Source: Candidatus Peregrinibacteria bacterium | Lineage (GTDB): Bacteria; Patescibacteriota; Gracilibacteria; UBA1369; LOWO2-01-FULL-3 | Direction of reading: 5' to 3' | Length of the DNA: 64,000 nt | NCBI GenBank assembly: GCA_030688025.1 | Contig: JAUYJL010000023.1 | Location: forward strand, 2,562-66,561 | Part shown: piece by piece, positions 8,408-61,162 of the stretch | Layout: each line of letters opens with the position of its first letter | Position numbering within the stretch: position 1 is the stretch's first letter | Made by a program: the position numbers and the translations under genes | The notes under the pieces: model-generated | Told to the model about the DNA's origin: nothing | The model's input: only the letters and a program-made list of their open reading frames with translations | Database searches by the model: none

Positions 8408-10138
8408 ATGGATAATAAAAAAATTGCTTCGATATTTGAAGAGATGGCGGATATCTTTGATATTAAAGGAGATAGTGTTTTTAAAATAAATGCTTATAGA
8501 AAGGCTGGGCATGTTATCGCGAATTTCCCATATGATTTACGCGATGTTGTTGCGAAAGATCCGAGGCAACTTGAGAATATTCCCGGTGTGGGAAAAGGAC
8601 TGAAAGATAAGATTATTGAACTCGTGAATACAGGTAAATGTGAAGAACATGATGAGCTCAGGAAAGCCATCCCGAAGGGTTTGCTTGAACTTCTTGAAAT
8701 ACGAGGAATAGGTCCGAAAAAAGTGAAGGCATTGTATTTGCATTTGAAGGTTGCAAGTATCAATGATTTGAAGGAGGCATGCGAAAAACACAAAGTTAAA
8801 GATTTGCCTGGCATGGGAGAAAAAACAGAAAATGAAATTATGAAGGCTATTTCTGAACACGCGTATTTTTCGACAAAAAGACATCTTATTTCCGAGGCGA
8901 TGCAGGAAGCGAAAAGAATTATTTCTTTTATGCAAAAATGTGACGACGTGAAAAAGATTGAATACGCGGGAAGCCTTCGCAGAAGACAAGAAACCATCGG
9001 CGATATTGACATTCTTGTTACCGTTAAAAACCCAAAAAAGAGTAGCGAAACTGTGATGACACATTTCCATTCTTATAGGGAGATTTTGACGATTTTGTCT
9101 AAGGGAGACACTAAATCAAGCGTTGTTTTGCAAAGTGGAATTCAAGTGGATTTACGCGTTATCGATGATGAGAGTTTTGGTGCAGCTTTGCATTATTTTA
9201 CCGGAAGCAAGGATCATAATATAAAAATACGCGATCTTGCAAAGAGGAAAGGGCTTAAAATAAGTGAGTATGGTGTTTTCAAAGGAGAGAAAATGATTGC
9301 CGGAAAAACAGAAGAAGAGGTTTTCAAGAGTGTCGGGCTTCCTTATATCATTCCTGAAAATCGATACAATAATGGCGAAATCGAGTATGGACTGAAAAAT
9401 AAAAAATTCCCTGAATTTATAGAACTGAAAGATATGAAAGGAGATCTTCATAATCACACTACTTATAGCGACGGAAAAGCTAGCATTGAAGAAATGGCAG
9501 AGGCGTTTATCGCGAAGGGATACGAATATTTCGCCGTCACTGATCACTCTTCAGTTATGGCAATTGTAAATGGAATGAGCACTAAAGATATCCAAAGACA
9601 GTGGAAAGAAATTGATGAATTAAACAAAAAACTTAAAGGAAAAATTAAAATTTTGAAAGGTTGTGAGGTGGATATTTTGAAAGATGGATCACTCGATTTC
9701 AATGACGATGTTTTGAAACAGCTTGATATCGTTGTTATTAGTGCGCATATGTATGGCACGCTTCCTTATGACGCACAAACAGAAAGACTTCTCACCGCAA
9801 TCGAAAATCCTTATGCGAAAATTCTTGGACATCCGACCGGACGACTCATAAACAAAAGGGCGCCGATGGAATTTGACATTGAAAAGGTGATAGAAGCTTG
9901 CGTGCAAAATAATGTAGCTATAGAGATAAATTCGAATCCGTCGCGTCTTGATTTACCGGATATATTTATCAAAATTGCGAAAGACAAAGGTGCGAAATTT
10001 GTAATAGATACGGATTCACATAGCGTAGAACAACCTGATTTTATGGAGTATGGAGTTTTCAATGCGAGGCGCGGATGGCTTACAAAAGATGACGTATTAA
10101 ATACGAAAAGTCTTGGAAAATTTGACACCTATTTTTAA
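8408..10138 (+). CDS. polX: DNA polymerase X family protein with C-terminal PHP domain
   Basis: 576 aa. The N terminus (IASIFEEMADIFDIKGDSVFKINAYRKA), the HhH motifs (IPGVGKGL, IRGIGPKK) and GSLRRRQETIGDIDILV are Pol beta-like. The C-terminal HNHTTYSDG...HPTGR...DTDSH is PHP-like. Confidence 0.9.
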   Translation: MDNKKIASIFEEMADIFDIKGDSVFKINAYRKAGHVIANFPYDLRDVVAKDPRQLENIPGVGKGLKDKIIELVNTGKCEEHDELRKAIPKGLLELLEIRGIGPKKVKALYLHLKVASINDLKEACEKHKVKDLPGMGEKTENEIMKAISEHAYFSTKRHLISEAMQEAKRIISFMQKCDDVKKIEYAGSLRRRQETIGDIDILVTVKNPKKSSETVMTHFHSYREILTILSKGDTKSSVVLQSGIQVDLRVIDDESFGAALHYFTGSKDHNIKIRDLAKRKGLKISEYGVFKGEKMIAGKTEEEVFKSVGLPYIIPENRYNNGEIEYGLKNKKFPEFIELKDMKGDLHNHTTYSDGKASIEEMAEAFIAKGYEYFAVTDHSSVMAIVNGMSTKDIQRQWKEIDELNKKLKGKIKILKGCEVDILKDGSLDFNDDVLKQLDIVVISAHMYGTLPYDAQTERLLTAIENPYAKILGHPTGRLINKRAPMEFDIEKVIEACVQNNVAIEINSNPSRLDLPDIFIKIAKDKGAKFVIDTDSHSVEQPDFMEYGVFNARRGWLTKDDVLNTKSLGKFDTYF

Positions 10139-11695: not shown

Positions 11696-15354
<3,659 letters not shown>

Positions 15355-22269: not shown

Positions 22270-22812
22270 ATGCCATCATTAAAAAAACATATGATTAGCA
22301 CTCGTGAGCTTCATCAAAAGTTGGCTAGCGTGCAACGTGACAAGATTGATAGTTTCAAGGCAAAGATGGATGCACGAAGAAGTTTAAGCGATAAAATCGC
22401 TGACGCTTTGACCGATTCTTTTGGGACGGTTTTATTTCTGAGTATTAATGCCTTGTGGTTTGGAGTATGGATTGTCATAAATACCGGACTGATTCCTGGA
22501 ATTGCAGTTTTTGATCCGTTTCCATTTGGTTTACTTACAATGATCGTTTCCTTGGAAGCAATCTTCTTGGCGGTTATCGTTCTTATAAGCCAAAATCGTT
22601 CTGCTCGCATCGATGATTTGCGTGAAGAAATTGACCTTCAAATCAATGTACGAACCGAGGCGGAAGTCACAAAAATACTTATTATTTTAGATAGAATTCA
22701 TGATCATTTGGGGCTACCTTCCGAGGATGATGCCGAGTTGATTATGATGAAACAAAATATCGACCTAGATGCGATTGCGCAAACTTTGACGAAGGAAATG
22801 ATTGAGGAATAA
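22270..22812 (+). CDS. DUF1003 family membrane protein
   Basis: DPFPFGLLTMIVSLEAIFLAVIVLISQNRSARIDDLREEIDLQINVRTEAEV matches the DUF1003 core pattern. Confidence 0.8.
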   Translation: MPSLKKHMISTRELHQKLASVQRDKIDSFKAKMDARRSLSDKIADALTDSFGTVLFLSINALWFGVWIVINTGLIPGIAVFDPFPFGLLTMIVSLEAIFLAVIVLISQNRSARIDDLREEIDLQINVRTEAEVTKILIILDRIHDHLGLPSEDDAELIMMKQNIDLDAIAQTLTKEMIEE

Positions 22813-22874
22813 TTTGAAAATGGTGCGTAGTCGTAGAGGATGTTCGGACTGGGATTGGCGTTGGCGGCTTAGAA

Positions 22875-24284
22875 TTATCTTCTATGTTTAGCCGTCAATG
22901 ATTCTGATGCTCTTATGTACATAATTTCTTGCTGACGTGAAAATCTTTGCCAATTTGCGTTAAATTCTTCAAGTCCATATGGAAGTTTATTTCGTTGATT
23001 TAATGCGCTTTTTTCGTAAAGCTTGAAGACTTCGTTTAGACATAGTGGCACCAGATTTAACATTGCATATGGCATCCACATTCTTTGAGCATCTATTGAT
23101 GGCCTTTCTCCTCTGATTTTTATCAGCTGAACAACCATGTCCAAAATTCTTTGGCTTGCTTCATTGATAGATGTTGCATCTACCTCTTCTTGGAAATATC
23201 CTTTTAACAAGGCCTTAAAAGGATTTAATTTCTCAAATCTTCCTAGATCGTTGATTATCCAATAGGCATTTGAATGAGTGATACTGTGAGTGAATCCGAA
23301 TATTGCACTTTCGATGTCACGCGTCATTGTTAGGGCTTTTGCTTGCGGTGGGAGTGAATCAATTTCAACAGAAGAATCGAGATCGTGCAGTAAAAGATCT
23401 CTTTTGTTTGGCATTAAGCTAAAATTCCCAAGATGAGAGGCGAATCTTGCGACACCAGCTTCGTGCGCTGAACGAAGAAGTCTCCCTATGTTTTTCCCTA
23501 TGTCAGCAGTAATTTTCAACATTGGTTCTCCTAATTTTCTTTGTCTTGTATCAACTACTTCAAAACGTCTTTCTATCAGTGCTTTCATTCCCTTACCAAC
23601 TTCGAATCTACCTGATGATGTATCTGGTTCAAAATATGCACCAAGTCTTTCTGGAACATCACTTGGAATGCCCAAAATAACAAATTCCGTAGGTTCATTT
23701 TGCCATTTTATTTCAGGATAACAACCCCATGCAATTGGAAGACATGCTGAAACTCCTCCTTTGTGCAATTTTGCAGCATTTTGGAATTCACGTTGTCCTC
23801 TTCCGGAAGATAAACCTCCTTCAGGTTTTGGAGGATCAAGGACTGGGTAAAGAGTGCCATTTTCCGCTATTCCCATATGAATAAGAATTACAGGAACTTC
23901 ATCTAGAATATTTCCTCCGCTATCTATTGTTCCAAACATTTGTTGGTAGGAATCGCCTTTTGGTGGAGATATTGTGCGTGTTTTTTGGCTAAAAGTTCCT
24001 ACCCCTTTTAATTTGTATCCGTGTACAGAAGTTTCTCCAACCTTAAGAGGTGATTTTCTCTTCACATAGCCACTCCGACCTGGACTCTCGAATGGCGGAT
24101 TGTTTGCCCAAGAAGCATAATCTGTTAGAGATTCTAATTCATCTGCTGGAATTTGAATTGCACCCGCAGTTGGACCAATCTGTGATTGCAATGGAAGAGA
24201 TGGAGATTGATATCTTGCATTTTGCGCGTCAGAGACTTCAAAATAATCTCTTGGATCCGGACGATTGTTTGATTCTGTACTCAT
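22875..24284 (-). CDS. Hypothetical protein (about 469 aa), possibly an atypical kinase-like fold
   Basis: Long intact ORF. The ATG MSTESNN at 24284 is preferred over the listed GTG at 24293. Weak kinase-like strings are present (HGYKLKGVG; SHLGNFSL...LLLHDLDSS). No confident family assignment. Confidence 0.7.
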   Translation of the reverse strand: MSTESNNRPDPRDYFEVSDAQNARYQSPSLPLQSQIGPTAGAIQIPADELESLTDYASWANNPPFESPGRSGYVKRKSPLKVGETSVHGYKLKGVGTFSQKTRTISPPKGDSYQQMFGTIDSGGNILDEVPVILIHMGIAENGTLYPVLDPPKPEGGLSSGRGQREFQNAAKLHKGGVSACLPIAWGCYPEIKWQNEPTEFVILGIPSDVPERLGAYFEPDTSSGRFEVGKGMKALIERRFEVVDTRQRKLGEPMLKITADIGKNIGRLLRSAHEAGVARFASHLGNFSLMPNKRDLLLHDLDSSVEIDSLPPQAKALTMTRDIESAIFGFTHSITHSNAYWIINDLGRFEKLNPFKALLKGYFQEEVDATSINEASQRILDMVVQLIKIRGERPSIDAQRMWMPYAMLNLVPLCLNEVFKLYEKSALNQRNKLPYGLEEFNANWQRFSRQQEIMYIRASESLTAKHRR

Positions 24285-24348
24285 AAAAAGCACCTTTTAT
24301 ATTATTAGAAGGTAATTTATAGCAATATTTTGCGAACTTGTCAAGAAG

Positions 24349-24423
24349 TGGTGCCGAAGGGCAGAATCGGACTGCCTACACATGGATTTTCAATCCACTG
24401 CTCTACCAATGAGCTACTCCGGC
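24349..24423 (-). tRNA. tRNA-Phe (anticodon GAA), CCA encoded, unusual T-loop
   Basis: The minus strand folds as: acceptor GCCGGAG/CTTCGGC (one G-U), D arm GCTC-ATTGGTA-GAGC, anticodon arm GTGGA-TTGAAAA-TCCAT, variable GTGTA, T arm GGCAG-TCCGATT-CTGCC, then A and CCA. The T-loop has C where the near-universal U55 is expected. Confidence 0.85.
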
Positions 24424-24514
24424 GCAAAAGTTTTACAGGGAGATTCTAAGGGTATAGCTTTGATAAATCAATGTTTTTTGTTATAATTGATTCCTTTTTT
24501 ATATTATACGATGT

Positions 24515-25489
24515 ATGGCAATTCCTGAAGGACACATAAAAGATATGTTTGTAAGATGGGCAGACAGATATGATGCAAGGCCCGTGGACGAGAAACAATT
24601 AGAGCTGACCGATCGCATTTTGGTGCCTGAACTTGGAGCGATTGAGGCGGAACTTTTGGAATTGAGGAAAGCTTTCGATGTTAGGATTCTTCAAGCCTTA
24701 AAGGATGATCCTCCTAAATTCCCTAAAAAACTTTTGAAAGATCCTTCGATAAGAAACCATTTTACTTATCCTGTAGGATATTGTGCGGCGATAAGAGATG
24801 GTATGTTTGAGGATGTTAGTGCCCAGCTTCATTGCCCTTCTACTCCCGGGATTTCTGCGATTTCACGTTTTGTTGGAGAGGGTGGATGTTTAAAAAAAGT
24901 TGGAGGAATTCAACACCGACAGTTTTTTCAAAATGGCATACAGGCCGGAGCGCTATGGCTTGATGCCGCGAATAATACTGTTGATGTGGATTCGCCCCCT
25001 GTAAAAATTTCCGTGCTTGCCAACTCAGGTTTTCAGAATATAGATGATTTTTCTTTGTGTGGAGATGTTATTGAATCGTATTGGAAAAGTGATGTCTATC
25101 CGCAAAGAGTGTTTCCATATTTATCTCCTTTGTTCCCCATTATTTACGTTTCGTCTGGCGGAAGAGTCCATGTTTTACCTATAAATATTAGCGGAATTGC
25201 AAATAATGTATTTTCAGATTTCAAAATGGCCGAAGATTTTATGTTCAGGAGTCGTTTTGCGGGAAAACGTTTGCCTGCGAAACAAATGAATCGTATAAAA
25301 CGGAAATACCCCGGAGCCAATAAAAGCGAAAATCCTTTTGAGCATTTGAATCCTGATGACTCTGTTATTGCTGCCTCGTTTGAGTGTTTCAGAAGTCTTA
25401 ATCCCAATGAATTATTTTCTCGTGTTGAAAAGGCGATAGATCTTACAAAAGGCATTAATGATGCTTTGGAAAACATTCCGAAAATTTAA
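24515..25489 (+). CDS. Hypothetical protein (324 aa)
   Basis: Intact ORF preceded by an extended -10 like tgttataat (about 24478-24487). No recognisable motif. Confidence 0.7.
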   Translation: MAIPEGHIKDMFVRWADRYDARPVDEKQLELTDRILVPELGAIEAELLELRKAFDVRILQALKDDPPKFPKKLLKDPSIRNHFTYPVGYCAAIRDGMFEDVSAQLHCPSTPGISAISRFVGEGGCLKKVGGIQHRQFFQNGIQAGALWLDAANNTVDVDSPPVKISVLANSGFQNIDDFSLCGDVIESYWKSDVYPQRVFPYLSPLFPIIYVSSGGRVHVLPINISGIANNVFSDFKMAEDFMFRSRFAGKRLPAKQMNRIKRKYPGANKSENPFEHLNPDDSVIAASFECFRSLNPNELFSRVEKAIDLTKGINDALENIPKI

Positions 25490-25525
25490 TTATATTTTAC
25501 AATTATTGCGTGGTAGAATGCTCGC

Positions 25526-26635: not shown

Positions 26636-27382
26636 ATGAAAAAAAGTTCAAATAAATTACTTCCAGTTTCAATTCTTGTAGCTTCTGTACTTGTTTCCGG
26701 ATCTCTTTCTTTTTTCGGATACGAATATGCGAATAAAATGACTGATGATGTTTTCAACTCGAAAGTTGAAGAAGGAATCAAGGCTTTCATCGCTAAACAA
26801 CAAGCATCAGCTCAGCCTGAAGACAAGACAGGAACTGTAGTTGAAGGTGATTATACTGATGATGATGCCGTTCTTGGGGATAGTGATGCTGTTGTAACAA
26901 TGATTGAATTTTCAGATTATCAATGTCCTGTCTGCCAGAGATTTCATGCAGAAGTTTTTGGAACTCTTAAAGCAAAATATATCGATACTGGAAAAATGAA
27001 ATTTGTTTATCGAGATCTTCCTCTTACTTCAATCCATCCAAATGCTTATCCTGCTGCGCTTGCAGCTGAGTGCGTGAAAGATCAAGGTGGGGACGAGATG
27101 TATTATGTAATGCATGAAAATATTTTTGAGGCCGCACTTTCTGAAGAGATGACTGCAGAAAGCTTGAGAAAATCTGCAGGCAAATCTGGAGCAAATTTAT
27201 CCAAATTTGATTCATGTGTCGCCGCTGATAAATTCAAAGATGAAATCGCAAAGGATACTCAGGATGCCTCAGACATAGGGTTCAGAGGAACTCCTGGATT
27301 CCTTATCAATGGTTATATGATGGATGGGCTATACAGCCTTGAAGCGTATGAGCAAGCTATTGATGAGGCTTTGGCACAATAG
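26636..27382 (+). CDS. DsbA-like thioredoxin-fold protein (membrane anchored)
   Basis: N-terminal TM segment, a CPVC active site in FSDYQCPVCQRFH, and C-terminal GTPGFLING. Confidence 0.85.
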   Translation: MKKSSNKLLPVSILVASVLVSGSLSFFGYEYANKMTDDVFNSKVEEGIKAFIAKQQASAQPEDKTGTVVEGDYTDDDAVLGDSDAVVTMIEFSDYQCPVCQRFHAEVFGTLKAKYIDTGKMKFVYRDLPLTSIHPNAYPAALAAECVKDQGGDEMYYVMHENIFEAALSEEMTAESLRKSAGKSGANLSKFDSCVAADKFKDEIAKDTQDASDIGFRGTPGFLINGYMMDGLYSLEAYEQAIDEALAQ

Positions 27383-27407
27383 GGAAATAATTATACGAGA
27401 GTTATTG

Positions 27408-27450
27408 AAGCCCCGGTTTGTCGGCATTGACAAGTCGGGGCTTTTCTTTT
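27408..27450 (+). terminator. Rho-independent terminator
   Basis: Long hairpin aagccccg...cggggctt with an inner ttgtc/gacaa pairing, followed by ttctttt. Confidence 0.7.
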
Positions 27451-27484
27451 ACTATGTCTGTAGTGATTTCTAATAAATAATTAT

Positions 27485-28264
27485 ATGAAAAAAATATTTG
27501 TTGCTTTTCTGCTTTCGGCCATTGTTTTTTCTGGCTGTACAATTAAATTTGGTGTTACGAATGATACGAATGATACGAATGATACGAATGAAGAAAAGGA
27601 AATAAAAGAAGTAAAAGAAACAACTGAGGTGAAAAAGACAGAAGAAGTTAAAAGTTTTATTGATTTGATTTCTCCTCCAAATGAAACACCATTCGATTCT
27701 TCTCCAATTGTTATTCAAGGAAAAGTTTCGACAAATGCAAAAAAAATAGAGGTTAAGGCTATCGGTGGACAAAAAGGTTATTGCGATGTTCTTTGTGCCC
27801 CATATTATGAGGATATCTATACTTTAGATAGTTTTAAACCTGGGGATCAAACTTTCTCTTATGGAGCTAGATCTGACTGGAATAACCTTGCTCATGGATA
27901 TAATAACTATACTTTTACCGCTTACTTTAATGATGAAAGTACTGCAAGTGATAGCGTCACGTTGTATTATGATCCATCAAAAATTCAATATGGTGATAAC
28001 AGTTATGGGCCTATTGCTGAGGTTTCGGATGCTGTAGCCGCATTTGCTGGAATAACTGATGCTAATGCCTACATCAATGATAATTTTGACAATAAATATA
28101 TAAAAGGTGTTTTACTTAGTGGCGAAACCTCAAGGTTTTGGGCTGTTAAACAGGACTCTAATTGGAAAATTTTGGCGCTAGCAAAACCTAATGAGGAAGT
28201 AAGCTGTACTGTATTTGCACCTTATAATTTTCCTGCAGCGCTGAGCAAGGATTGCCGTAAATAG
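27485..28264 (+). CDS. Lipoprotein with N-terminal TND repeat
   Basis: MKKIFVAFLLSAIVFSGCTIK (lipobox), then (TND)x3-4 and a Lys/Glu-rich linker. Confidence 0.75.
   Translation: MKKIFVAFLLSAIVFSGCTIKFGVTNDTNDTNDTNEEKEIKEVKETTEVKKTEEVKSFIDLISPPNETPFDSSPIVIQGKVSTNAKKIEVKAIGGQKGYCDVLCAPYYEDIYTLDSFKPGDQTFSYGARSDWNNLAHGYNNYTFTAYFNDESTASDSVTLYYDPSKIQYGDNSYGPIAEVSDAVAAFAGITDANAYINDNFDNKYIKGVLLSGETSRFWAVKQDSNWKILALAKPNEEVSCTVFAPYNFPAALSKDCRK
27557..27591. repeat. 9-bp tandem repeat (acgaatgat) x3.9 inside the lipoprotein gene
   Basis: Perfect units at 27557, 27566 and 27575, plus a partial fourth. The repeat is in frame and encodes TND repeats. Confidence 0.9.
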
Positions 28265-28268
28265 TTTT

Positions 28269-28547
28269 CTATTTATACAGCATGAATTTGAATTTCACAC
28301 CATTTTCTTCTTCCTCCTTTATGAGTTGTTTGTTTGAGAATTTGGCTGGGATCTCAGGGAAATACGTGTCACATTCGTAAGAGTTTTCGATGAATGTGAT
28401 GTAAAGTCCTGTGAGATTTGGATTCTCCAATGATTCTTTGAAAAGAGTTGCGCCACCGATTATGAAGATTGTTTCTATGCCGTCCCCTGCTGAATTTATA
28501 GCTTCGTCTAGAGATTGAAAAATTTCGACTCCTTCTATTTTTAGAGA
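28269..28547 (-). pseudogene. Start-less duplicate of the 3' half of folA (dihydrofolate reductase)
   Basis: Aligns without gaps to 32129..32407 at a constant offset of 3860 nt. By hand count there are about 40 mismatches in 279 nt, with a 115-nt perfectly identical core (28309..28423). It translates in frame to ...SLKIEGVEIFQSLDEAINSAGDGIETIFIIGGATLFKESLENPNLTGLYITFIENSYECDTYFPEIPAKFSNKQLIKEEEENGVKFKFMLYK* but has no start codon or N-terminal half. Confidence 0.85.
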
Positions 28548-28551
28548 TGTA

Positions 28552-30540
28552 TTAGGCTAAATCCTTATAGTCTCCTGTGTTGCCGTCTATCTTTATTTTT
28601 GTCCCTATTTTGAGCGTTTCTTTTGTAACCCCTGTCACCACAGGCAATCCTCTTTCTCTTGCGATTATTGACAAGTGAGAAAGAAATCCTCCCTGCTCTG
28701 AGACTATGCCTTTTATTTCATCAAAGTGTTTTACCAATTCAGGAGAAAGTACTCTTGTGAATAAGATTTTATCTTTATTTTTATATTTTTCATCCTTCAG
28801 TTGATCTTCTTCAATCAATATCCCCTCAGCTTTCCCTGGCGAAACTCCTTGAGTTTCTTGTTTCTGAGTAATCTGTTTATTTGTCAGTATTTTTGGCATA
28901 TTAAAGTATGTGTATTTCTCATACTCTAATTTTCTCTCTTCACAAACATTCTGTGAAATTTTTCCACTTACTATTTCTTCCAGTTTTGCGAAATAAATTT
29001 CTTTTTTATTTTTGAAATTATTTTTTCCTGCAAGTTCAAATAAAATTTCCCTGAGTTGATTTATTCTTTTTACAACCAGCCATCTGCTCATCTCCCTGAG
29101 CTTATTATAAACCACTACTTGCTGTATTTTTTTCTTCAACATTGTCTTTTTGATTTCCGATAATTTCCCCCACCATTCTTTCATTTCATCGTTTTTATTC
29201 TCGCCTTGTATGTTTCTGACAAAATTACTTTCATCTGAAATTTCGATAGTGTTGCCTAACAAATTTTTCGAATCGATGTTTAGCTTAAAACTTTCATCAC
29301 CTTGGAATAACTGCCCTCCTTGGCTTAATAGAAGCGATAATGCTATGTCGTTTTTTGTAAGATTTTCTATGTTTTTCATTGAAATTCCGGCAAAAAGATT
29401 TATTTCAAAAACTATCTGATAATCTTTTTCAAAAACTTTTAGAAATTCCTGTACCGTGTTTATTTTTTGTTCATTTTCTATCGCGTTTTTTAGTTCCTGA
29501 AAAATTTTATTATAATCATCAATATTAATTCTATAGATGAAAAATAAATTTTTTATAGTTTTAAAAATTCCCGTGAGCCCGCTTAGTTTCGGCCTTAGAT
29601 CAGAGGATTTTAGATAACTGTACGACGGCATTAAAGTTTTTAATTCTTCTTCTCTATCAACGAAAAGTTCATTTCCTATTATTTTTAAAACATTTATTGA
29701 AGAATAATTTATGTTAAATTTTTTATATGCCAATTGAATCGGTCCATTTTCTTCATACACTTTTTCGAGAATATCTTTTGTTATTTGAGTAGGTCTTGGT
29801 GCTATTTCTGAAATCTCAGTTTTCTCGTAATAGAAATCTTCTTCCGGTAATGATGCATCGAGATATAAAGATTGTTTGTATTCCGTTTCTGATATAGTTG
29901 TAATTGGCCTTGTCTGAAGGAAATACCACTTTTCGTCTTTTATGCACCACTCAACATCTTGTGGAAATTTATAAAACAACTCTATGCTTTTAAAATCCAG
30001 AAAGGCTTTATTTAGGCTTGGCAAAGTACTTTCCGTAGGATTATCAGTCCAGTATAACTTCAGTTTTTCTGGTTTAATATTTCCACTCACAAGATCTTCT
30101 CCTCGCCCTTTGTGATATTCAATAATCAGCTCTCTTCCTCCAACAGGGTTTCTTGTGAACGTCACTCCTGCGATATCTGGTTCTATGTATTCCTGAATAA
30201 GAACTGAGAATTTTTCTATTGATCCACCAAGAAATTTTCGAGCATGATCTGTTATTTCCGCTATTGCTGATGCGAGATTTTGTTCTTCTACATTTATTTT
30301 TGTTTTGAATTGGCCTGCAAAAGATTCTTTTTGGCTATCTTCTATCAATGCGCTTGATCTGACCGCATATTTTTCACAATTCAATTCTTCATGAATTTTT
30401 TTTGCAAGTGGTTCAAAATCTTCTATGTTTTCTTTTAATTCTTTGACATCAATAGCTTTGAATTTCGGGACATTTAAGCCTAGGGATATTAGATCCGATA
30501 GTTTCAATGTTTTTGCACCAATTGTTGGATTATTGTGCAT
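28552..30540 (-). CDS. PEP/pyruvate-binding plus PEP-utilizing mobile-domain protein (PpsA N-terminal / rifampin-phosphotransferase-like architecture)
   Basis: The N terminus has the PPDK_N-type ATP-grasp (GAKTLKLSDL..YAVRSSALIEDSQKESFAGQF...DVEWCIKDEKWYFLQTRPIT). The C terminus has the swivelling phosphohistidine domain (GVSPGKAEG...VSEQGGFLSHLSIIARERGLPVVTG). No TIM-barrel PEP domain is present. Confidence 0.85.
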   Translation of the reverse strand: MHNNPTIGAKTLKLSDLISLGLNVPKFKAIDVKELKENIEDFEPLAKKIHEELNCEKYAVRSSALIEDSQKESFAGQFKTKINVEEQNLASAIAEITDHARKFLGGSIEKFSVLIQEYIEPDIAGVTFTRNPVGGRELIIEYHKGRGEDLVSGNIKPEKLKLYWTDNPTESTLPSLNKAFLDFKSIELFYKFPQDVEWCIKDEKWYFLQTRPITTISETEYKQSLYLDASLPEEDFYYEKTEISEIAPRPTQITKDILEKVYEENGPIQLAYKKFNINYSSINVLKIIGNELFVDREEELKTLMPSYSYLKSSDLRPKLSGLTGIFKTIKNLFFIYRINIDDYNKIFQELKNAIENEQKINTVQEFLKVFEKDYQIVFEINLFAGISMKNIENLTKNDIALSLLLSQGGQLFQGDESFKLNIDSKNLLGNTIEISDESNFVRNIQGENKNDEMKEWWGKLSEIKKTMLKKKIQQVVVYNKLREMSRWLVVKRINQLREILFELAGKNNFKNKKEIYFAKLEEIVSGKISQNVCEERKLEYEKYTYFNMPKILTNKQITQKQETQGVSPGKAEGILIEEDQLKDEKYKNKDKILFTRVLSPELVKHFDEIKGIVSEQGGFLSHLSIIARERGLPVVTGVTKETLKIGTKIKIDGNTGDYKDLA

Positions 30541-32107
30541 ATTCCCATGGCTTATTGTATCTGCCCAAAAATTCGATGCCTCTTTCTTCGAGTTCTACGG
30601 CTGTAATTTTTGCATCGAAACAGTTTACGTAATCGTCACAAATTGTGATTACAGTACTACCTTGAGGAACTTGGGCAAAAGCTTTTTCGATGTCTTTTGT
30701 CGGAGTATACATTATCGGAATATTTACACTTCCTTCAATATGCCAGTTCTCAAATTTCCATGGCTCACGAGAATCCACTAGGATTACACCATTTTCAACC
30801 TTTTCTTTGACTTCGCTTGTCGTAAATATTTTTTTATATTTTTCCCCTGAGTATTTTTCTGCAAATTTTATGTTCCCTATCCATGATCCACCCCACTCTA
30901 CCCATCCATTTGCGCCATTTTCTAAATAAGAAGCTACTATATTTTTTGTTCTCAAAAATTCCGCCACTTCTTTCCCGCGAATTCCGGACCAACATAGCAC
31001 GTATACATATTTATTTTCAGGAAGTTCTATCCATTTCCCGGCTTGCAGGTCAGCAAATCGAACGTGAGTGCTTCCTTGAAGATATCCATTTTCATATTCC
31101 AAATTTTCACGTGCATCAATTACTATATAGTCATTTTTATTACTCTTTAGAATTTTATTAAAATCTGCATTACTGATTGAAAGTGCATTTTTTTGGTTTT
31201 CACTATAAAAATCTGCCGGTTGATCTCCTTTTTCAGCGATTATTTGATCACCTTTCTCGACCAATTTTCCTTCACTTAATGTTCTGACATTTGAGTTAGC
31301 AATTTGTATTGGAGTGTTATCTTGAATTTTTAGTTTCATCAGTACTCCGTAACGAATGTATTTATCGCCTTCATAGAGCGTTAATTCTAATGAAGAGGTT
31401 GAATCGTCAATTCGGACCAAATTGTCCAAAGTAATTTTCGTTGTATTTACATACCAACTTTTGAATGTTGCGAGACTTGTGGATTTTTTGGACATCTCGT
31501 ATGCCTTTTCTAAATCTTGATTTGCAATAGCCTTATAGTAATCCTCTATGAATTTTATACTTGTGTCTTTATCAGGATTTTTGATTGTTGAAACAAATTT
31601 TAGATTTTCTTCTTTTATTTGCCTTGAGATTTTTGGGACATCTCCGATTTTTAATTTATCTATCGCCGTTGTTTCTTCTATTTGGGCTATATTTTCTTCA
31701 GTTTTTTGTCTTGGTATTTTTTTCAAATATTGTTGTTCTTCCGCGGGTAATTGAGTGTATTTTTGGCTTTCTTCCAGCCATTTCTCATACTCAAGATTCT
31801 GTTTATAATTTCCATATAAGTATGCCGAACCTACTGATACTCCTATTATTGCTACTAATGAAATTGATATGAATATTATTTTGTTAGACTGCATTAATGC
31901 CAATTTTGTTTTAATAAATTGGTAAGACACGCTAAAAATTGCCGCCAAAAAAATTGCGGCTATTGATGCAACCTGAGCTATTTGAGATCCAATATTGAAA
32001 ATAAAATCCGGGGGAGGTACCGCGTGAACTGTCTGAGGAAAGGCTATCACGCAAATCAATGCAAAACTTACAAAAGCAAAAAGGTCTTTCGGAGTTTTCT
32101 TGTACAT
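30530..32107 (-). CDS. Membrane protein with two C-terminal rhodanese domains
   Basis: A signal/TM region (AFPQTVHA, two further helices) is followed by a rhodanese domain with an active-site loop (YVYVLCWSGIRGKE). A second rhodanese-like domain (ILVDSREPWKFENWHIEGSVNIP...VITICDDYVNC) follows. It overlaps the next gene by 11 nt. Confidence 0.8.
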   Translation of the reverse strand: MYKKTPKDLFAFVSFALICVIAFPQTVHAVPPPDFIFNIGSQIAQVASIAAIFLAAIFSVSYQFIKTKLALMQSNKIIFISISLVAIIGVSVGSAYLYGNYKQNLEYEKWLEESQKYTQLPAEEQQYLKKIPRQKTEENIAQIEETTAIDKLKIGDVPKISRQIKEENLKFVSTIKNPDKDTSIKFIEDYYKAIANQDLEKAYEMSKKSTSLATFKSWYVNTTKITLDNLVRIDDSTSSLELTLYEGDKYIRYGVLMKLKIQDNTPIQIANSNVRTLSEGKLVEKGDQIIAEKGDQPADFYSENQKNALSISNADFNKILKSNKNDYIVIDARENLEYENGYLQGSTHVRFADLQAGKWIELPENKYVYVLCWSGIRGKEVAEFLRTKNIVASYLENGANGWVEWGGSWIGNIKFAEKYSGEKYKKIFTTSEVKEKVENGVILVDSREPWKFENWHIEGSVNIPIMYTPTKDIEKAFAQVPQGSTVITICDDYVNCFDAKITAVELEERGIEFLGRYNKPWEYAQ

Positions 32108-32128
32108 GGGAATGAATTATATTTTATG

Positions 32129-32647
32129 TTATTTGTATAACATAAATTTAAACTTTATTCCATTTTCCTCTTCCTCCTTTATGAGTTGTTTGTTTGAGAA
32201 TTTGGCTGGGATCTCAGGGAAATACGTGTCACATTCGTAAGAGTTTTCGATGAATGTGATGTAAAGTCCTGTGAGATTTGGATGAGTTAAAGATTCTTTG
32301 AAAAGGGTTGCGCCACCTATGATGAAGATTGTTTCGATATCATCCCCTGCTGAAGCAATCGCATATCCTAGTGATTTATAAACCTCTACGCCTTCGATTT
32401 TTAGAGAGTCATCGCGAGTAAGTACTACATTTTTTCTATCTTTGAGTGGGCGATATTTTTCAGGTAAAGAATACCAAGTGTTTTTGCCCATGATCACCAT
32501 GTTTTTTTTGCTTGGATCTTTCACTGTCGTAGTGATTTCCTTGAAATATTGCGTTTCTTTTTTAAAATGCCAAGGCATCGCATTGTCCTTTCCTATGCCA
32601 TTTTTTGAGTCTACCGCGACTATGATGTAAATTTCTTTGTTGCTCAT
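32129..32647 (-). CDS. folA: Dihydrofolate reductase
   Basis: IVAVDSKNGIGKDNAMPWHFKKETQYFKEIT, GKNTWYSLP, FIIGGATLF. Confidence 0.92.
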   Translation of the reverse strand: MSNKEIYIIVAVDSKNGIGKDNAMPWHFKKETQYFKEITTTVKDPSKKNMVIMGKNTWYSLPEKYRPLKDRKNVVLTRDDSLKIEGVEVYKSLGYAIASAGDDIETIFIIGGATLFKESLTHPNLTGLYITFIENSYECDTYFPEIPAKFSNKQLIKEEEENGIKFKFMLYK

Positions 32648-32654
32648 GGCTTTA

Positions 32655-33470
32655 TTATACAGCCACAGGGAATTTTATAAAGGCCTCGTGTTCATATCCC
32701 TTCAATTCGAAATCTTCAAATGTTAGCTCCCAGAAAGGTTTCTTTGCAATTACTAACTTTGGCAACGCATGTGGTTGTCTTTTAATTTGTTCTTTTATTC
32801 CCTCAAGGTGATTTGAATAAATGTGTGTATCGCCAGTCGTGTGAACGAAATATCTTGGAGTCAAATTACATTCTTGTGCGACCATCATCAAAAGTGTCGC
32901 GTAACTCGCAATATTGTACGGTACGCCAAGCGCAACGTCCGCACTCCTCTGGTAGAGCTGTACGTCCAAATACTGCCCTACAACGTAAAACTGGAAGAAT
33001 GCGTGGCATGGTGGTAAGGCCATTCTATCCAAATCCGCAACGTTCCATGCACTCACAATTATTCTTCGTGAATCCGGATTGTTTTTTATTGTATCTATCG
33101 CGATTTGGATCTGATCGATGTGACTTTTCGTGTATGTAGTTTGGTCTTCGTTCAAAGTAAATTTCTCCCATTTCCTCCATTGGTAGCCATAAATCGGACC
33201 TAGATTTCCGTCTTTGTCGGCCCATGCGTCCCAAATTGGAGTGTGCTCCTTTAGGTCTTCATTGATGTTTGTAGAGCCTTTTAAAAACCAAAGTAGTTCC
33301 CTCAAGATGGCTCCGTAGCTTACTTTTTTCGTTGTAACCATTGGGAATCCTTCGCGTAAATCGTATTTTTTTTGTGTTCCAAAAATCGAAATAGTTCCTG
33401 TTCCTGTTCTATCTTTTTTTTCTACTCCGTCTTTCAAAACTTCTTGGACTAGTTCTAGATATTGTTTCAT
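32655..33470 (-). CDS. thyA: Thymidylate synthase
   Basis: [42 protein letters not shown]. Confidence 0.95.
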
Positions 33471-34015
33471 ATATTTATTTTTACTGTGTCTGTATCTTTG
33501 TGAATTTTACTTCCTGTTGTTTTGTCTTGCCCCTGATATTTTCCATTGTATGGAGTTTTTGCCGGCGCATCCATTCTACAGCAAACCAACTGACAAATTC
33601 TTTTTCCCGCTTGTAATCTTATAGGGAGAGGACTTGCATTGAAAAGCTCTAATGTGATTCTGCCTTCAAATCCCGGGTCAACCCATCCTGCATTTTGGAT
33701 GAAAAGACCAATTCTACCAATCGAGCTTCTGCCCTCTACAAAGGCTGTAATGTCATTTGGCAGTTTTACATATTCTTGCGTCGTTGCGAGCAAAAATGAA
33801 TTTGGCGGAATAACTATATTGTCATTATTTATTTCTCGGTATTTTATTTCCGAATCCAAAGTTATGATCTCCGCTTCATTTTCCTCAATCACGAGAAAGT
33901 GAGCCCCAAGCCTCAAATCGATTGAAGCAGGTTGTATAGATTTTTCATCAATTGGATCAATTACGATAATTTTTTCTTTAATTAAACGCTCTAAAGTTGT
34001 GTCGGAAAGAATCAT
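33467..34015 (-). CDS. dcd: dCTP deaminase
   Basis: [34 protein letters not shown]. There is a 4-nt overlap with thyA. Confidence 0.92.
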
Positions 34016-58880: not shown

Positions 58881-59562
58881 TTCGTTTTTTTATGAATAAT
58901 TGAATTTCTATTGATATGTTTGTAAGTTCATTTAATTTCTTATCTTGTGCCCCATCTTTAAGTGATAAATTTTGATATTTTATGTTTGAAATTTTTACGT
59001 AATATGGAATTTTATCAAGTGCTGTGACGAAAGATTGCATATCTTTTATGTCTCCATAAAAATTAATATTATAAGTAATACTGTCGTTCTTTGATTTAGT
59101 TTTATCAGTTGGCTGATCTTTATCATCAATAGTTCTGATATCCAGATTTAGAGAAAGTTCTTTTCCAAGACTCTCCAATGTTGTTATAAAGGTAATAAAT
59201 TCCTCTTCCGTTTGAGGTCGTAATTTCAATAAAAAGTCTATGACTTTTTGAGTATTTCCTGTGTAAAGTAATAGGCTATCTTCAAAGTTTGGACGCATTT
59301 CTTCCGCGACTTTAATAAAAGATTTATTCTCGCTTATGTCGGTTTTTATGCTTAACGAAGACATCCCGATGATTGACGTACCAAAGAAACCAAGGATCAC
59401 GAATATCAGACATAAGTGTATGATTCTTTTTGCTAAGGTTCCGGTTTCGTCGTGAGAGTTGTCCTCCGGTGATGATATTTTCACCGGCTGAGTTGTGGCA
59501 TCTCCGTAATCTTCCGATTCTTCCGGATCGTCTATCCTATTTTGGGATTCCATTCCAAGCAT
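58870..59562 (-). CDS. Bitopic membrane protein of the pilus operon (PilO-like position)
   Basis: An acidic N terminus and one TM helix (IIHLCLIFVILGFFGTSIIGM) are followed by a periplasmic-type domain. The assignment rests on context only. Confidence 0.55.
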   Translation of the reverse strand: MLGMESQNRIDDPEESEDYGDATTQPVKISSPEDNSHDETGTLAKRIIHLCLIFVILGFFGTSIIGMSSLSIKTDISENKSFIKVAEEMRPNFEDSLLLYTGNTQKVIDFLLKLRPQTEEEFITFITTLESLGKELSLNLDIRTIDDKDQPTDKTKSKNDSITYNINFYGDIKDMQSFVTALDKIPYYVKISNIKYQNLSLKDGAQDKKLNELTNISIEIQLFIKKRNAN

Positions 59563-61162
59563 AAGGCTTTAGTTCGTTAAATTTTAATTCTAGTTTTAAT
59601 ATGAATGAGATATTTTCTTTTTCGTCAAAATTCGACAGAGGCGCAATGACTTTTTCTACATACGGTTCTTCTTCTAGTTTTTTTCTTGTATTCAATAGGG
59701 TTTCTCTTGTGTTTGCAATTCCACTGATATTTACCGTCAAATCTTGGTTGTTGAATTCAAGAGAGGATATCGTGGCTCCTTTTGGGATGGAACCGACTAT
59801 GTTTTTTAATAATTCAGGTACTGAGAATAAAGAACTTTGAATCGTAGTTAATGCTGTTACTTCAGAATTAAAATCCGTTATTGCTCTTTTGATTTCTTGA
59901 TATCTTGTTCCGTAAATTAATTGCTGTAGAGAGCTTTTTTCCCCTTCCGAATCAACTCTTTGAAAAGAAAATTCCTGATGTTTCAAAATGACAAGTGTAC
60001 TTAAAACTAAGGAAACTATTGCCAAAGATATTGATATTAAAACCAATAATAATGACAATTTTTTGGAAGCGAAAGAAGCTTTGAGGCGGTCAGGCAATAA
60101 GTTTATGCCTGTGTCCTTTGCGTTTAGCCCTTTTACCGCCAATCCAATGGCTGTCGAGAAGTAGACTGAATACGGGAATGCTCCTTTATTTTTGTCCAAT
60201 GGAGTGAATTTATCTGCGTCCGCTTTTATTCCCAAACGTGGGTCGCCCGGCAAAATTTCTTTATCGGGGAACGCTTTTTTTGCGTTATCATAAAAACCTG
60301 GAAGGTTTAAAAATTCTCCTGTAAGGAATATCGTTTTAACGTCAATATCTTTAATTATTACTTTTGTTTCTTCAAAAATTTTATTTTCAAATTTTTCTAT
60401 TTGAGGAATAAATGAAGGATCAAAATTATTTTTTTCTTTTTGATTAATAATTTCGAATTCCTGCAATTGTGACTCTTCAGCCAATTCTTTCACAAGGCCT
60501 TTTCCGCTTTCCATAGATGTGAAGACATTTTTGAGTTCCGATCTATTGAATACGGAATATGTCGTTGCAAGATATCCTATGTCTATTACCAACGATGAAG
60601 GGATTCTTTCAATCTGATTTTTAAGTGCATTTTCCACGCATTCCGCATGGATTGTGAAAGCATAAGGATTTAGTCCCGCTGAAGTGAGTAATTTTACATA
60701 GCTATCGGCCACTTGTTTTTGGACACTTGCGAATAAAACATACTGTGAAGCATGCGGTGTTTTTGGCGGATCCTTGTGCAAAATTCTAAAATCCCAATAA
60801 ATATCTTTAACAAGAAAAGGGATTACATTTTCAGCTTCAAACGGTAGTGCTTTTTCAATTTCTTTTGGGTTTAGTTCTACCGGAAATTTAAAAATATGTG
60901 TAAAAACTTTTCTTTCGGGAAAACTGCAAATCACGTTTTTTACTTTTATTGCTTTTGGATTTGCTGTTTCAAGAAGCGTGGTAATGATATTTTTTAATTC
61001 TTCTTGATTAACAATTTCTCCGTCTCTGATTACTTGAGGTGGAATTACGACTCTATTAAAAGCCAATAATGAATTTACATTTCCCGATAATTCCATTTCC
61101 ACCACTTGAGCGTAGTAGTCATGGAAGTCTAATCCTATAATTTTTTTTGAGAAAAGTGACAT
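59537..61162 (-). CDS. pilM: Type IV pilus assembly protein PilM fused to a PilN-like membrane segment
   Basis: An actin-like ATPase N terminus (IIGLDFHDYYAQVVEMEL...VIDIGYLATTYSVF). This is followed by LLPDRLKASFASKKLSLLLVLISISLAIVSLVL (PilN-type TM) and a C-terminal domain. Confidence 0.82.
   Translation of the reverse strand: MSLFSKKIIGLDFHDYYAQVVEMELSGNVNSLLAFNRVVIPPQVIRDGEIVNQEELKNIITTLLETANPKAIKVKNVICSFPERKVFTHIFKFPVELNPKEIEKALPFEAENVIPFLVKDIYWDFRILHKDPPKTPHASQYVLFASVQKQVADSYVKLLTSAGLNPYAFTIHAECVENALKNQIERIPSSLVIDIGYLATTYSVFNRSELKNVFTSMESGKGLVKELAEESQLQEFEIINQKEKNNFDPSFIPQIEKFENKIFEETKVIIKDIDVKTIFLTGEFLNLPGFYDNAKKAFPDKEILPGDPRLGIKADADKFTPLDKNKGAFPYSVYFSTAIGLAVKGLNAKDTGINLLPDRLKASFASKKLSLLLVLISISLAIVSLVLSTLVILKHQEFSFQRVDSEGEKSSLQQLIYGTRYQEIKRAITDFNSEVTALTTIQSSLFSVPELLKNIVGSIPKGATISSLEFNNQDLTVNISGIANTRETLLNTRKKLEEEPYVEKVIAPLSNFDEKENISFILKLELKFNELKPYAWNGIPK

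Follow-up and report, generated by a model that had tools for sequence, protein, structure and literature searches.

A two-gene module inserted behind folA between two direct copies of the folA 3' end in a Candidatus Peregrinibacteria genome

How did two genes come to lie between two copies of the end of folA in a Candidatus Peregrinibacteria genome, at a site that carries no recombinase gene? The locus lies within a stretch of 64,000 nucleotides, the whole of which is referred to here as the window. Genes at the locus are read from the minus strand throughout, in the order dcd-thyA-folA, a membrane rhodanese gene, an RPH-like PEP-utilising phosphotransferase gene and a fragment of folA, with a lipoprotein gene convergent upon them. 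The dcd gene (dCTP deaminase, 33467-34015; Pfam DCD, E=1.3e-50) comes first in its block and is followed by thyA (thymidylate synthase, 32655-33470; Pfam Thymidylat_synt, E=3.3e-112), which shares 91-97% amino acid identity with its relatives, and by an intact folA (dihydrofolate reductase, 172 aa, 32129-32647; Pfam DHFR_1, E=2.7e-39), which aligns without gaps and over its full length with the folA of relatives. This block order is kept in all close relatives. On the plus strand lie the convergent lipoprotein gene (259 aa, 27485-28264) and a dsbA-like thioredoxin gene (26636-27382; Pfam Thioredoxin_4/DSBA). Rfam and tRNA scans returned two tRNAs only, neither of them located at the insertion site, while promoter and terminator predictions gave counts at chance level, with no minus-strand terminator in the region.

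By repeat search, one repeat family was found (28249-28547 and 32109-32407, gapless, spacing 3860), and no further repeat of at least 45 nt was detected across the whole 64-kb window, the folA pair being the only one. This bore out the constant 3,860-nt offset without gaps that the initial annotation had reported for two copies of the folA 3' end, one of which is indeed the end of the intact gene in the dcd-thyA-folA block (32129-32407, minus strand). The full homologous extent of each repeat is 284 nt (folA nt 236-519), of which 279 nt are gapless as first reported. Copy 1, the 3' end of the intact gene, occupies 32129-32412 and consists of flank A (32284-32412), a core (32169-32283) and tail X (32129-32168), whereas copy 2, the start-less fragment, occupies 28269-28552 and consists of flank B (28424-28552), a core (28309-28423) and tail Y (28269-28308), all on the minus strand. 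An exact count between 28269-28547 and 32129-32407 gave 40 mismatches in 279 nt, in agreement with an earlier hand count of about 40, and the perfect core of 115 nt was recovered at the same coordinates as the longest identical stretch between the copies. When the 40 mismatches were placed at random, a 115-nt run arose in 0 of 200,000 trials, and in orthologue pairs from related species the longest identical run across these 279 nt spans only 14-36 nt.

The two genes are an insertion. An empty site, which the initial annotation had suggested seeking in related genomes, was present in eight related loci from separate assemblies (approximately 85-89% folA protein identity), each with a single folA and with neither the module nor the fragment. 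The gene opposite folA differs among them: folA faces dsbA directly in L004, L005/L089, L007/L090 and L008/L088, by synteny; it is convergent with an orthologue of the lipoprotein gene (70-74% amino acid identity) in L006 and L091, where this gene is thus a native folA neighbour; and it lies opposite an SLH gene in L173. The case marks the folA-dsbA gap as a hotspot of gene-content change in the clade. No strain-level empty site was found in genome, metagenome, folA protein and exact-protein searches, in which the closest relative had 89% folA identity. These sequence comparisons support an insertion that is lineage-specific.

Both junctions of the insertion exist physically. In the Logan k=31 assembly of SRR13727534, three contigs match the window exactly over their whole length, and one of them runs in the order core-X-rhodanese-phosphotransferase-B-core. 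An assembly chimera was accordingly rejected, as this independent assembly reproduces both junctions exactly.

The fragment at 28269-28547 is in frame, stop-free and start-less, as described previously; two smaller measurements around it had to be corrected. The 4-nt spacer that had been placed after the phosphotransferase stop is not real, since comparison with relatives extends the homology to 28552, a position that serves both as folA nt 236 and as the final A of the TAA stop of the phosphotransferase gene. The distance from the fragment stop to the lipoprotein stop is 4 nt (28265-28268) rather than 5 nt. At this right junction, between the TAA stop and folA nt 236, microhomology amounts to at most 1 nt; the junction could equally have been pre-formed on a circle. 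Tail Y is native: together with the sequence beyond it, it aligns collinearly with the original folA/lipoprotein junction as seen in L091. Queried against proteins, the 92-aa fragment gave six candidates and one match, which was uninformative on the native allele, and scans of 185,579 species genomes and of a metagenome collection revealed no other folA fragment. Two other accounts of the fragment were discarded: a fusion or frameshift product with the phosphotransferase, because the frames differ and a TAG at 28557-28559 closes the fragment frame, and pseudogene decay in place, which is ruled out by a dN/dS of 0.06 between the copies. The fragment is most probably a dead duplicate, the displaced old end of folA beside its original lipoprotein neighbour.

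Exactly two genes lie between the repeats, as the initial annotation had stated. The first (30530-32107, minus strand, 525 aa) encodes an N-terminal hydrophobic segment and two rhodanese domains (Pfam Rhodanese, E=6.2e-22, in two stretches; PDB match 6mxv, a rhodanese-like protein). It overlaps by 11 nt with the second (28552-30540, minus strand, 662 aa), which by Pfam and NCBIfam combines PPDK_N with a C-terminal PEP-utilizers swivel domain, a domain order similar to that of RPH. All NCBIfam matches of the second gene, including rifamycin phosphotransferase, were far under cut-off, with 124.8 bits against NF041857 (RPH), for which the equivalog cut-off is 999, and its best PDB matches (5fbs/5hv1 family) cover residues 514-656 only. 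Its product is therefore best described as a predicted His-swivel phosphotransferase, RPH-like and below the RPH family cut-off. At the left edge of the inserted DNA, a spacer of 21 nt (32108-32128, minus strand) separates the folA stop from the start of the rhodanese gene. Upstream spacers of homologous modules elsewhere measure 13-68 nt and three of them carry a TGTATAAT motif, which is absent at that distance in the present spacer.

In related CPR genomes the two genes recur as a conserved pair, every time at a site other than this one. Pairing of the phosphotransferase with the rhodanese gene is kept in L084, L086, L168 and L172, and the closest homologues show 71-72% amino acid identity. 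No module was found in viral contigs or plasmids, and genome and metagenome scans, a folA protein search and exact-protein look-ups returned no donor genome in which folA adjoins the module. The GC content of the cassette is 1-2 sd low and its codon usage is typical of the genome, a composition that is not diagnostic of foreign origin. Domain searches confirmed that neither the cassette nor the genes within approximately 10 kb include an integrase or transposase. Nor is the insert an integron gene cassette: it has no integrase and no attC-type inverted repeat at its ends, one of which coincides with a stop codon, and the single inverted repeat nearby spans the folA stop, its halves being 70% complementary.

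Divergence between the two copies shows that one of them is foreign. Outside the core, pS is 0.69, pN 0.107 and dN/dS 0.06, and the corresponding ranges for orthologue pairs of different species are 0.37-0.88 for pS and 0.04-0.26 for dN/dS. The flanks, only 73-77% identical between copies, have therefore diverged in the manner of functional orthologues, so one arm evolved as a working gene in another lineage, as had been proposed when the repeats were first described. The core, in contrast, is 100% identical, with a pS of 0 against 0.36-0.74 between species, and would mark a recent tract of exchange or conversion. The event likewise looks recent, which had been put forward as a possibility: there are no stops, no indels and no non-synonymous excess, and the core is identical. 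Gene conversion between dispersed bacterial duplicates is known from tufA/tufB and the rRNA operons. The core resembles those cases in being a sharply bounded, fully identical block inside diverged copies; it differs from them in that the two copies are of different lineage and one is a fragment without function.

Taken together, the sequence comparisons identify the locus as a product of inter-lineage recombination, and its most likely origin, which we favour with moderate confidence, is a Campbell-type insertion-duplication by the host's homologous recombination. A Campbell-type single crossover of a non-replicating circle is the basis of insertion-duplication mutagenesis. On this reading, a 3.58-kb promoter-less module would have arrived attached to the terminal 284 nt of a foreign folA allele diverged at the species level, perhaps by DNA uptake, and host homologous recombination would have integrated it into the resident folA, through a single crossover of circularised DNA bearing one homology arm. 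The outcome would be one intact folA followed by the module, which would be read through from the dcd-thyA-folA operon, and the displaced 3' end of folA left beside the lipoprotein gene, with the 115-nt core as a tract of allele exchange or homogenisation, arising by crossover or conversion. Reversal of this recombination, for which the repeats offer 115 identical bases, could in principle remove the module.

Direct repeats of a single folA segment enclose the insert, as such an event requires, with one copy completing the gene and the other truncated, and a dedicated recombinase is unnecessary. Events of this kind arise spontaneously in E. coli, where single crossovers of circles accounted for 56 of 60 one-arm integrations and left target duplications of 109-950 bp (PMC3240628), a range that includes the 284-nt duplication seen here. 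Cultivated CPR bacteria of another phylum have been shown to be naturally competent and to integrate DNA by homology (PMC10633639), and at the present locus dcd, close by, bears signs of mosaic recombination with relatives. The present case differs from the laboratory ones in being natural and in an uncultured CPR bacterium, in that its arm, which reaches the 3' end of the gene so that folA stays intact, derives from an allele that has diverged to 73-77% identity outside the core, and in that, in place of a vector, the putative circle would carry a closely trimmed module of two genes. The crossover of circular DNA advanced in the initial annotation thus holds in so far as the insertion is lineage-specific and the arms stem from different lineages; a simple crossover within the core leaves the identity of the core unexplained. 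With flanks of 73-77% identity, a single crossover needs either an already shared core or an added conversion step. Against this reading, too, the searches turned up no circular form and no donor.

A further point against a crossover in the core is that it predicts one native and one foreign flank in each copy, yet B and Y, both in the fragment, are somewhat closer to relatives than are A and X of the intact gene. Where the copies differ, L005 sides with the fragment against the intact gene by 23:12 and L091 by 24:8; pS to relatives in the 5' flank is 0.31-0.57 for the fragment and 0.52-0.76 for the intact gene; and divergence ratios are 0.86-0.88 for B, 0.71-0.79 for Y, 1.06-1.12 for A and 1.14-1.24 for X. 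These differences fall within noise, as the ratios for thyA scatter over 0.92-1.15. Taken at face value, they would suit one-ended, homology-facilitated illegitimate recombination (HFIR-like), followed by a 115-nt gene conversion of the core, an alternative that we regard as possible although unlikely. A linear molecule ending in donor folA-rhodanese-phosphotransferase might have paired on its left with the resident thyA/folA and been joined illegitimately on its right, exactly at the phosphotransferase stop, to resident folA nt 236; B-core-Y would then be the resident remnant and A-core-X, in the intact gene, would be the donor's. The unusual distance of the module proteins (72% at best) would also fit if A, X and the module all came from one more remote donor, and a junction within one base of a stop codon, with microhomology of at most 1 nt, agrees with illegitimate joining.

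HFIR is known from natural transformation in Acinetobacter, Streptococcus pneumoniae and Pseudomonas stutzeri (PMC3240628), and the present locus shares with it foreign DNA caught beside a homologous anchor and one junction without homology beyond about 1 nt. The classical outcome, however, is deletion of recipient DNA, whereas here there is a duplication, and the core demands an extra conversion. Two events would be required, integration and then conversion of exactly the core, and conversion would be hard to start between arms that are approximately 75-85% identical. In one laboratory study, moreover, true one-ended events were rare in comparison with circle crossovers (4 versus 56 of 60; PMC3240628).

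Duplication in place is improbable. Here, a template switch in replication or repair would have copied the module from another place in the genome and folA nt 236-519 a second time, so that the repeats were at first identical, and later imports from related species would have overwritten flank A upstream and tail Y downstream, leaving the core as residual identity. The sharp edges of the core would then be explained without gene conversion, the codon usage of the module is that of the genome, and imports from relatives do occur nearby: a patch of dcd matches L007 at 19 sites versus 6 for L005, indicating mosaic recombination. No upstream recombination breakpoint could be placed by sliding nucleotide identity, per-gene pS or site-pattern counts, because the clade is near star-like and mosaic. 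At least three events would be needed, however, with two tract ends inside a 284-nt repeat, and DNA imported from a relative whose site is empty would tend to remove the module. This account also predicts that B and X are of one allele, yet B is among the flanks closest to relatives and X the most distant.

We give equally little credence to the idea that the module is unintegrated, or not integrated in all cells, such that a 3,860-nt circle (B-core-X-rhodanese-phosphotransferase) and an empty chromosome (A-core-Y) were joined through the core by the assembler. Logan contig SRR13727534_56571 measures 3,890 nt, that is 3,860 + 30, and begins and ends with the same 30 nt, which is the shape expected of a circle at k=31; in addition, the contig with thyA and the 5' part of folA ends 2 nt before the core and not 30 nt inside it. 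The same contig shape is equally expected for an integrated segment flanked by repeats, however, and the window's own contig (73 kb) resolved the repeat. A 3.86-kb circle without a replication gene would not persist, and its presence would imply earlier integration and excision, altering the state and not the nature of the element.

The least credible is a site-specific element. Integrative elements insert into the 3' ends of tRNA, tmRNA or protein genes and bring a replacement end, and the locus resembles them in its regenerated target, in the displaced native end at the far junction and in an identical core between diverged arms, reminiscent of attL/attR. An integrase would have to be encoded elsewhere, as none lies in the cassette or within approximately 10 kb. 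The insert is of 3.9 kb with only two metabolic-type genes, and homology extends to both sides of the core, including a 129-nt folA-homologous arm 5' of it (B) that such elements do not need. Neither the five other module copies nor the SLH insertion of L173 has flanking repeats, so that the module copies give no recurrence of an att core, and the folA fragment is the only one in the species genomes and metagenomes scanned. This second origin offered in the initial annotation, an element integrating into the 3' end of a gene, is thus unsupported.

With Campbell-type insertion-duplication as the favoured origin, the locus illustrates cleanly, and in nature, a type of event that is already known; it is neither a new type of element nor a new mechanism. 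A bolder interpretation, to which we attach only a slim chance, would make it a recombinase-free mobile cassette, a 3,860-nt circle whose attachment site is the 3' end of an essential housekeeping gene and which is integrated and excised by host RecA alone and always regenerates its target. Were this so, repeated integration and excision would keep the core identical, the 3,890-nt Logan contig could be the circle, and CPR bacteria would trade operon add-ons via DNA uptake.

CPR bacteria (Patescibacteria) have few classical mobile elements, and their gene acquisition is largely inferred. At this locus the scar is still readable, in a native remnant, a foreign and functionally diverged arm, an exchange tract and empty sites in sister species, and it offers a concrete test case for the dynamics of integration and excision in metagenomic reads. 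It indicates that homologous recombination with diverged DNA can append whole genes behind an essential operon without disrupting it.

Repeat searches of the 64-kb window revealed a single repeat family, at 28249-28547 and 32109-32407, with a gap-free spacing of 3,860 nt and no second repeat of at least 45 nt. Exactly 40 mismatches separate 28269-28547 from 32129-32407, and the alignment contains an identical core of 115 nt (28309-28423 = 32169-32283), a length that never arose when 40 mismatches were placed at random 200,000 times; the longest identical run in orthologous folA pairs of related species is only 14-36 nt. One copy belongs to the intact folA (32129-32647), which is preceded by thyA (32655-33470) and dcd (33467-34015). 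Downstream of folA are genes for a 525-aa rhodanese-domain protein (30530-32107) and a 662-aa PPDK_N/PEP-utilizers phosphotransferase (28552-30540), followed by a start-less, stop-free folA fragment. All of these lie on the minus strand, and a lipoprotein gene (27485-28264) is convergent with the fragment. The initial annotation had described this arrangement, i.e., the offset, mismatches, core, gene order and two intervening genes, and its description holds in every measurable respect. By comparison with relatives, homology of the fragment to folA extends to 28552 (folA nt 236), the final base of the phosphotransferase TAA stop, showing that the inserted DNA was trimmed to within one base of its final stop codon. 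At its other end, the insert begins 21 nt ahead of its first start codon.

Outside the core, the two copies displayed a pS of 0.69, a pN of 0.107 and a dN/dS of 0.06, values indistinguishable from those that orthologues in different species show across these codons (pS 0.37-0.88, dN/dS 0.04-0.26). This divergence built up when each sequence was still a functional gene in its own lineage, and one arm is therefore foreign. In-place decay of a duplicate was rejected, as it would give a large non-synonymous excess. Core pS was 0, compared with 0.36-0.74 between species, and the core edges were abrupt: of the six bases adjoining the 5' edge, five differ. These features are the signature of homologous exchange or a conversion tract. 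Given that no indels, stops or relaxed-selection signal were found between the copies, the insertion is recent, as had been suggested from the first reading.

The window represents a chromosomal segment from a CPR bacterium of Peregrinibacteria/Peribacteria type. The closest species genome to the window, which holds housekeeping genes including ligA, dnaX, polX, bipA and pilM, was PFOM01000009 (locus L005), with ~86-96% nucleotide identity across shared stretches. The initial annotation had proposed a search for empty sites; folA without the module was found in eight related loci from separate assemblies, which keep the ispG-dcd-thyA-folA block (folA proteins ~85-89% identical); module genes or a second folA piece were present in none of the eight. 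In L004, L005/L089, L007/L090 and L008/L088, dsbA directly faces folA, an orthologous lipoprotein gene does so in L006 and L091, and a co-directional SLH-domain gene occupies the site in L173. The folA-dsbA gap (window 27383-28268 and 28553-32128, L173:10520-11790, L006:2698-3076) is clearly a hotspot at which gene content changes in the clade. Four species have no gene in it, L006, L091 and the window have the convergent lipoprotein gene, and the module is confined to the window. The last 40 nt of the fragment (tail Y, 28269-28308) and the sequence that follows are collinear with the native folA/lipoprotein junction of L091, and thus the fragment occupies the gene's original place.

Assembly chimerism, raised in the initial annotation, was addressed with an independent assembly of SRR13727534 (Logan, k=31), in which three contigs are exact substrings of the window. 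One of these has 30 nt of core, then tail X (32129-32168), both module genes, flank B (28424-28552) and the entire core, such that both unusual junctions physically exist. The pairing of arms lies beyond k=31, which is compatible either with flank A (32284-32412) joined to X and B to Y, the integrated form seen in the window, or with A joined to Y and B to X, which would represent a 3,860-nt circle alongside an empty site; these are two states of one element. Another contig, SRR13727534_357556 (thyA and the folA 5' part), stops at 32286, 2 nt short of the core. A simple repeat would place this end 30 nt within the core, and the fragment side passes the whole core; the early stop may be due to a polymorphic position at the edge of the core, or to a conversion tract whose end varies there.

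No integrase or transposase was found in or near the segment, in agreement with the initial annotation, and folA homology is present on both sides of the core, a combination that fits recombination by the host's homologous machinery and not a site-specific element. Of the two origins originally envisaged, an element integrating into the 3' end of a gene is disfavored on these grounds, whereas the footprint fits a Campbell-type event, in which a single crossover of circular DNA carrying the module would have produced an insertion-duplication at folA. We rank this explanation first, with moderate confidence. In one E. coli study, single crossovers of circular molecules accounted for 56/60 one-arm integrations and left duplications of 109-950 bp (PMC3240628). 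Cultivated CPR bacteria from a different phylum have been shown to be naturally competent and to integrate incoming DNA by homology (PMC10633639).

A crossover within the core would leave A and Y as native sequence and B and X as foreign, but the data lean the opposite way, with B and Y both nearer to relatives than are A and X. At differing sites, the fragment is favored 23:12 in agreement with L005 and 24:8 with L091, and divergence ratios were 0.71-0.88 for B and Y vs 1.06-1.24 for A and X. This pattern fits a whole native fragment joined by a donor segment, A-core-X-module, with subsequent conversion of 115 nt; such a product could stem from a far-left crossover or a one-ended event resembling homology-facilitated illegitimate recombination (HFIR). 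However, the B/Y vs A/X differences fall inside the scatter seen along thyA, and every model requires some homogenising step or an already shared core; HFIR followed by conversion is therefore ranked second, as rather unlikely. Lower still are an in-place duplication that was overwritten later, a 3,860-nt circle that is not integrated, and a site-specific element, the last lacking any integrase or transposase in or near the segment.

The rhodanese and phosphotransferase genes form an overlapping pair conserved in related CPR genomes (L084, L086, L087, L168, L172), each time in another neighborhood and without flanking repeats; best protein matches reach 71-72% identity. The phosphotransferase combines an N-terminal ATP-grasp with a C-terminal phosphohistidine swivel domain and fell far under every cut-off in an NCBIfam search. 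Its nearest solved structures are the 5fbs/5hv1 chains, which are Listeria rifampin phosphotransferase deposited as PEP synthase. It is most likely an ATP-driven His-swivel enzyme partnering the membrane-anchored rhodanese protein. A database entry labelled partial "sulfurtransferase" (P0117) matches it over 93% of its length. In three homologous modules (L084:8395-8430, L168:313-348 and L172:640-687), an extended -10-like motif, TGTATAAT, lies 25-35 nt ahead of the rhodanese start. The window module keeps just 21 nt of upstream sequence (32108-32128), and its own promoter region was apparently lost as a result; as no terminator was found between folA and the module, expression by read-through from the dcd-thyA-folA operon is likely.

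Elsewhere in the window, a dcd stretch (33600-33900) shares 19 exclusive sites with L007 vs 6 with L005, the usual closest relative, and the window's dcd protein shares 95.6% identity with that of L007 vs 89.3% with that of L005. This stretch looks like a recombination patch imported from another species, suggesting that imports from relatives do occur here. A variable block (22300-25500) lies beside tRNA-Phe (24349-24423). Its ORF 22875-24293 (472 aa, no Pfam match) is absent from the closest relative, and ORF 24515-25489 (324 aa, no Pfam match) is just 38-46% identical to relatives; L006 contains two matches to it in tandem. Also encoded in the window are a family-X DNA polymerase with PHP domain (8408-10138), an NAD-dependent DNA ligase (13216-15318) and type IV pilus PilM (59537-61162), kinds of function relevant to end joining and DNA uptake.

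Scans of species genomes and metagenomes yielded no further folA fragments, the module was not found on phages or plasmids, and there is no sign of it circulating as an element. A cassette without a recombinase, attaching through the end of a housekeeping gene and cycling through RecA, is in our estimation very unlikely. The structure resembles gene-end-replacing integrative elements but lacks their defining recombinase, and works the same way as laboratory insertion-duplication. The folA insertion is a new, well-preserved natural case of a known event type, in a group where mechanisms of gene gain are rarely visible.
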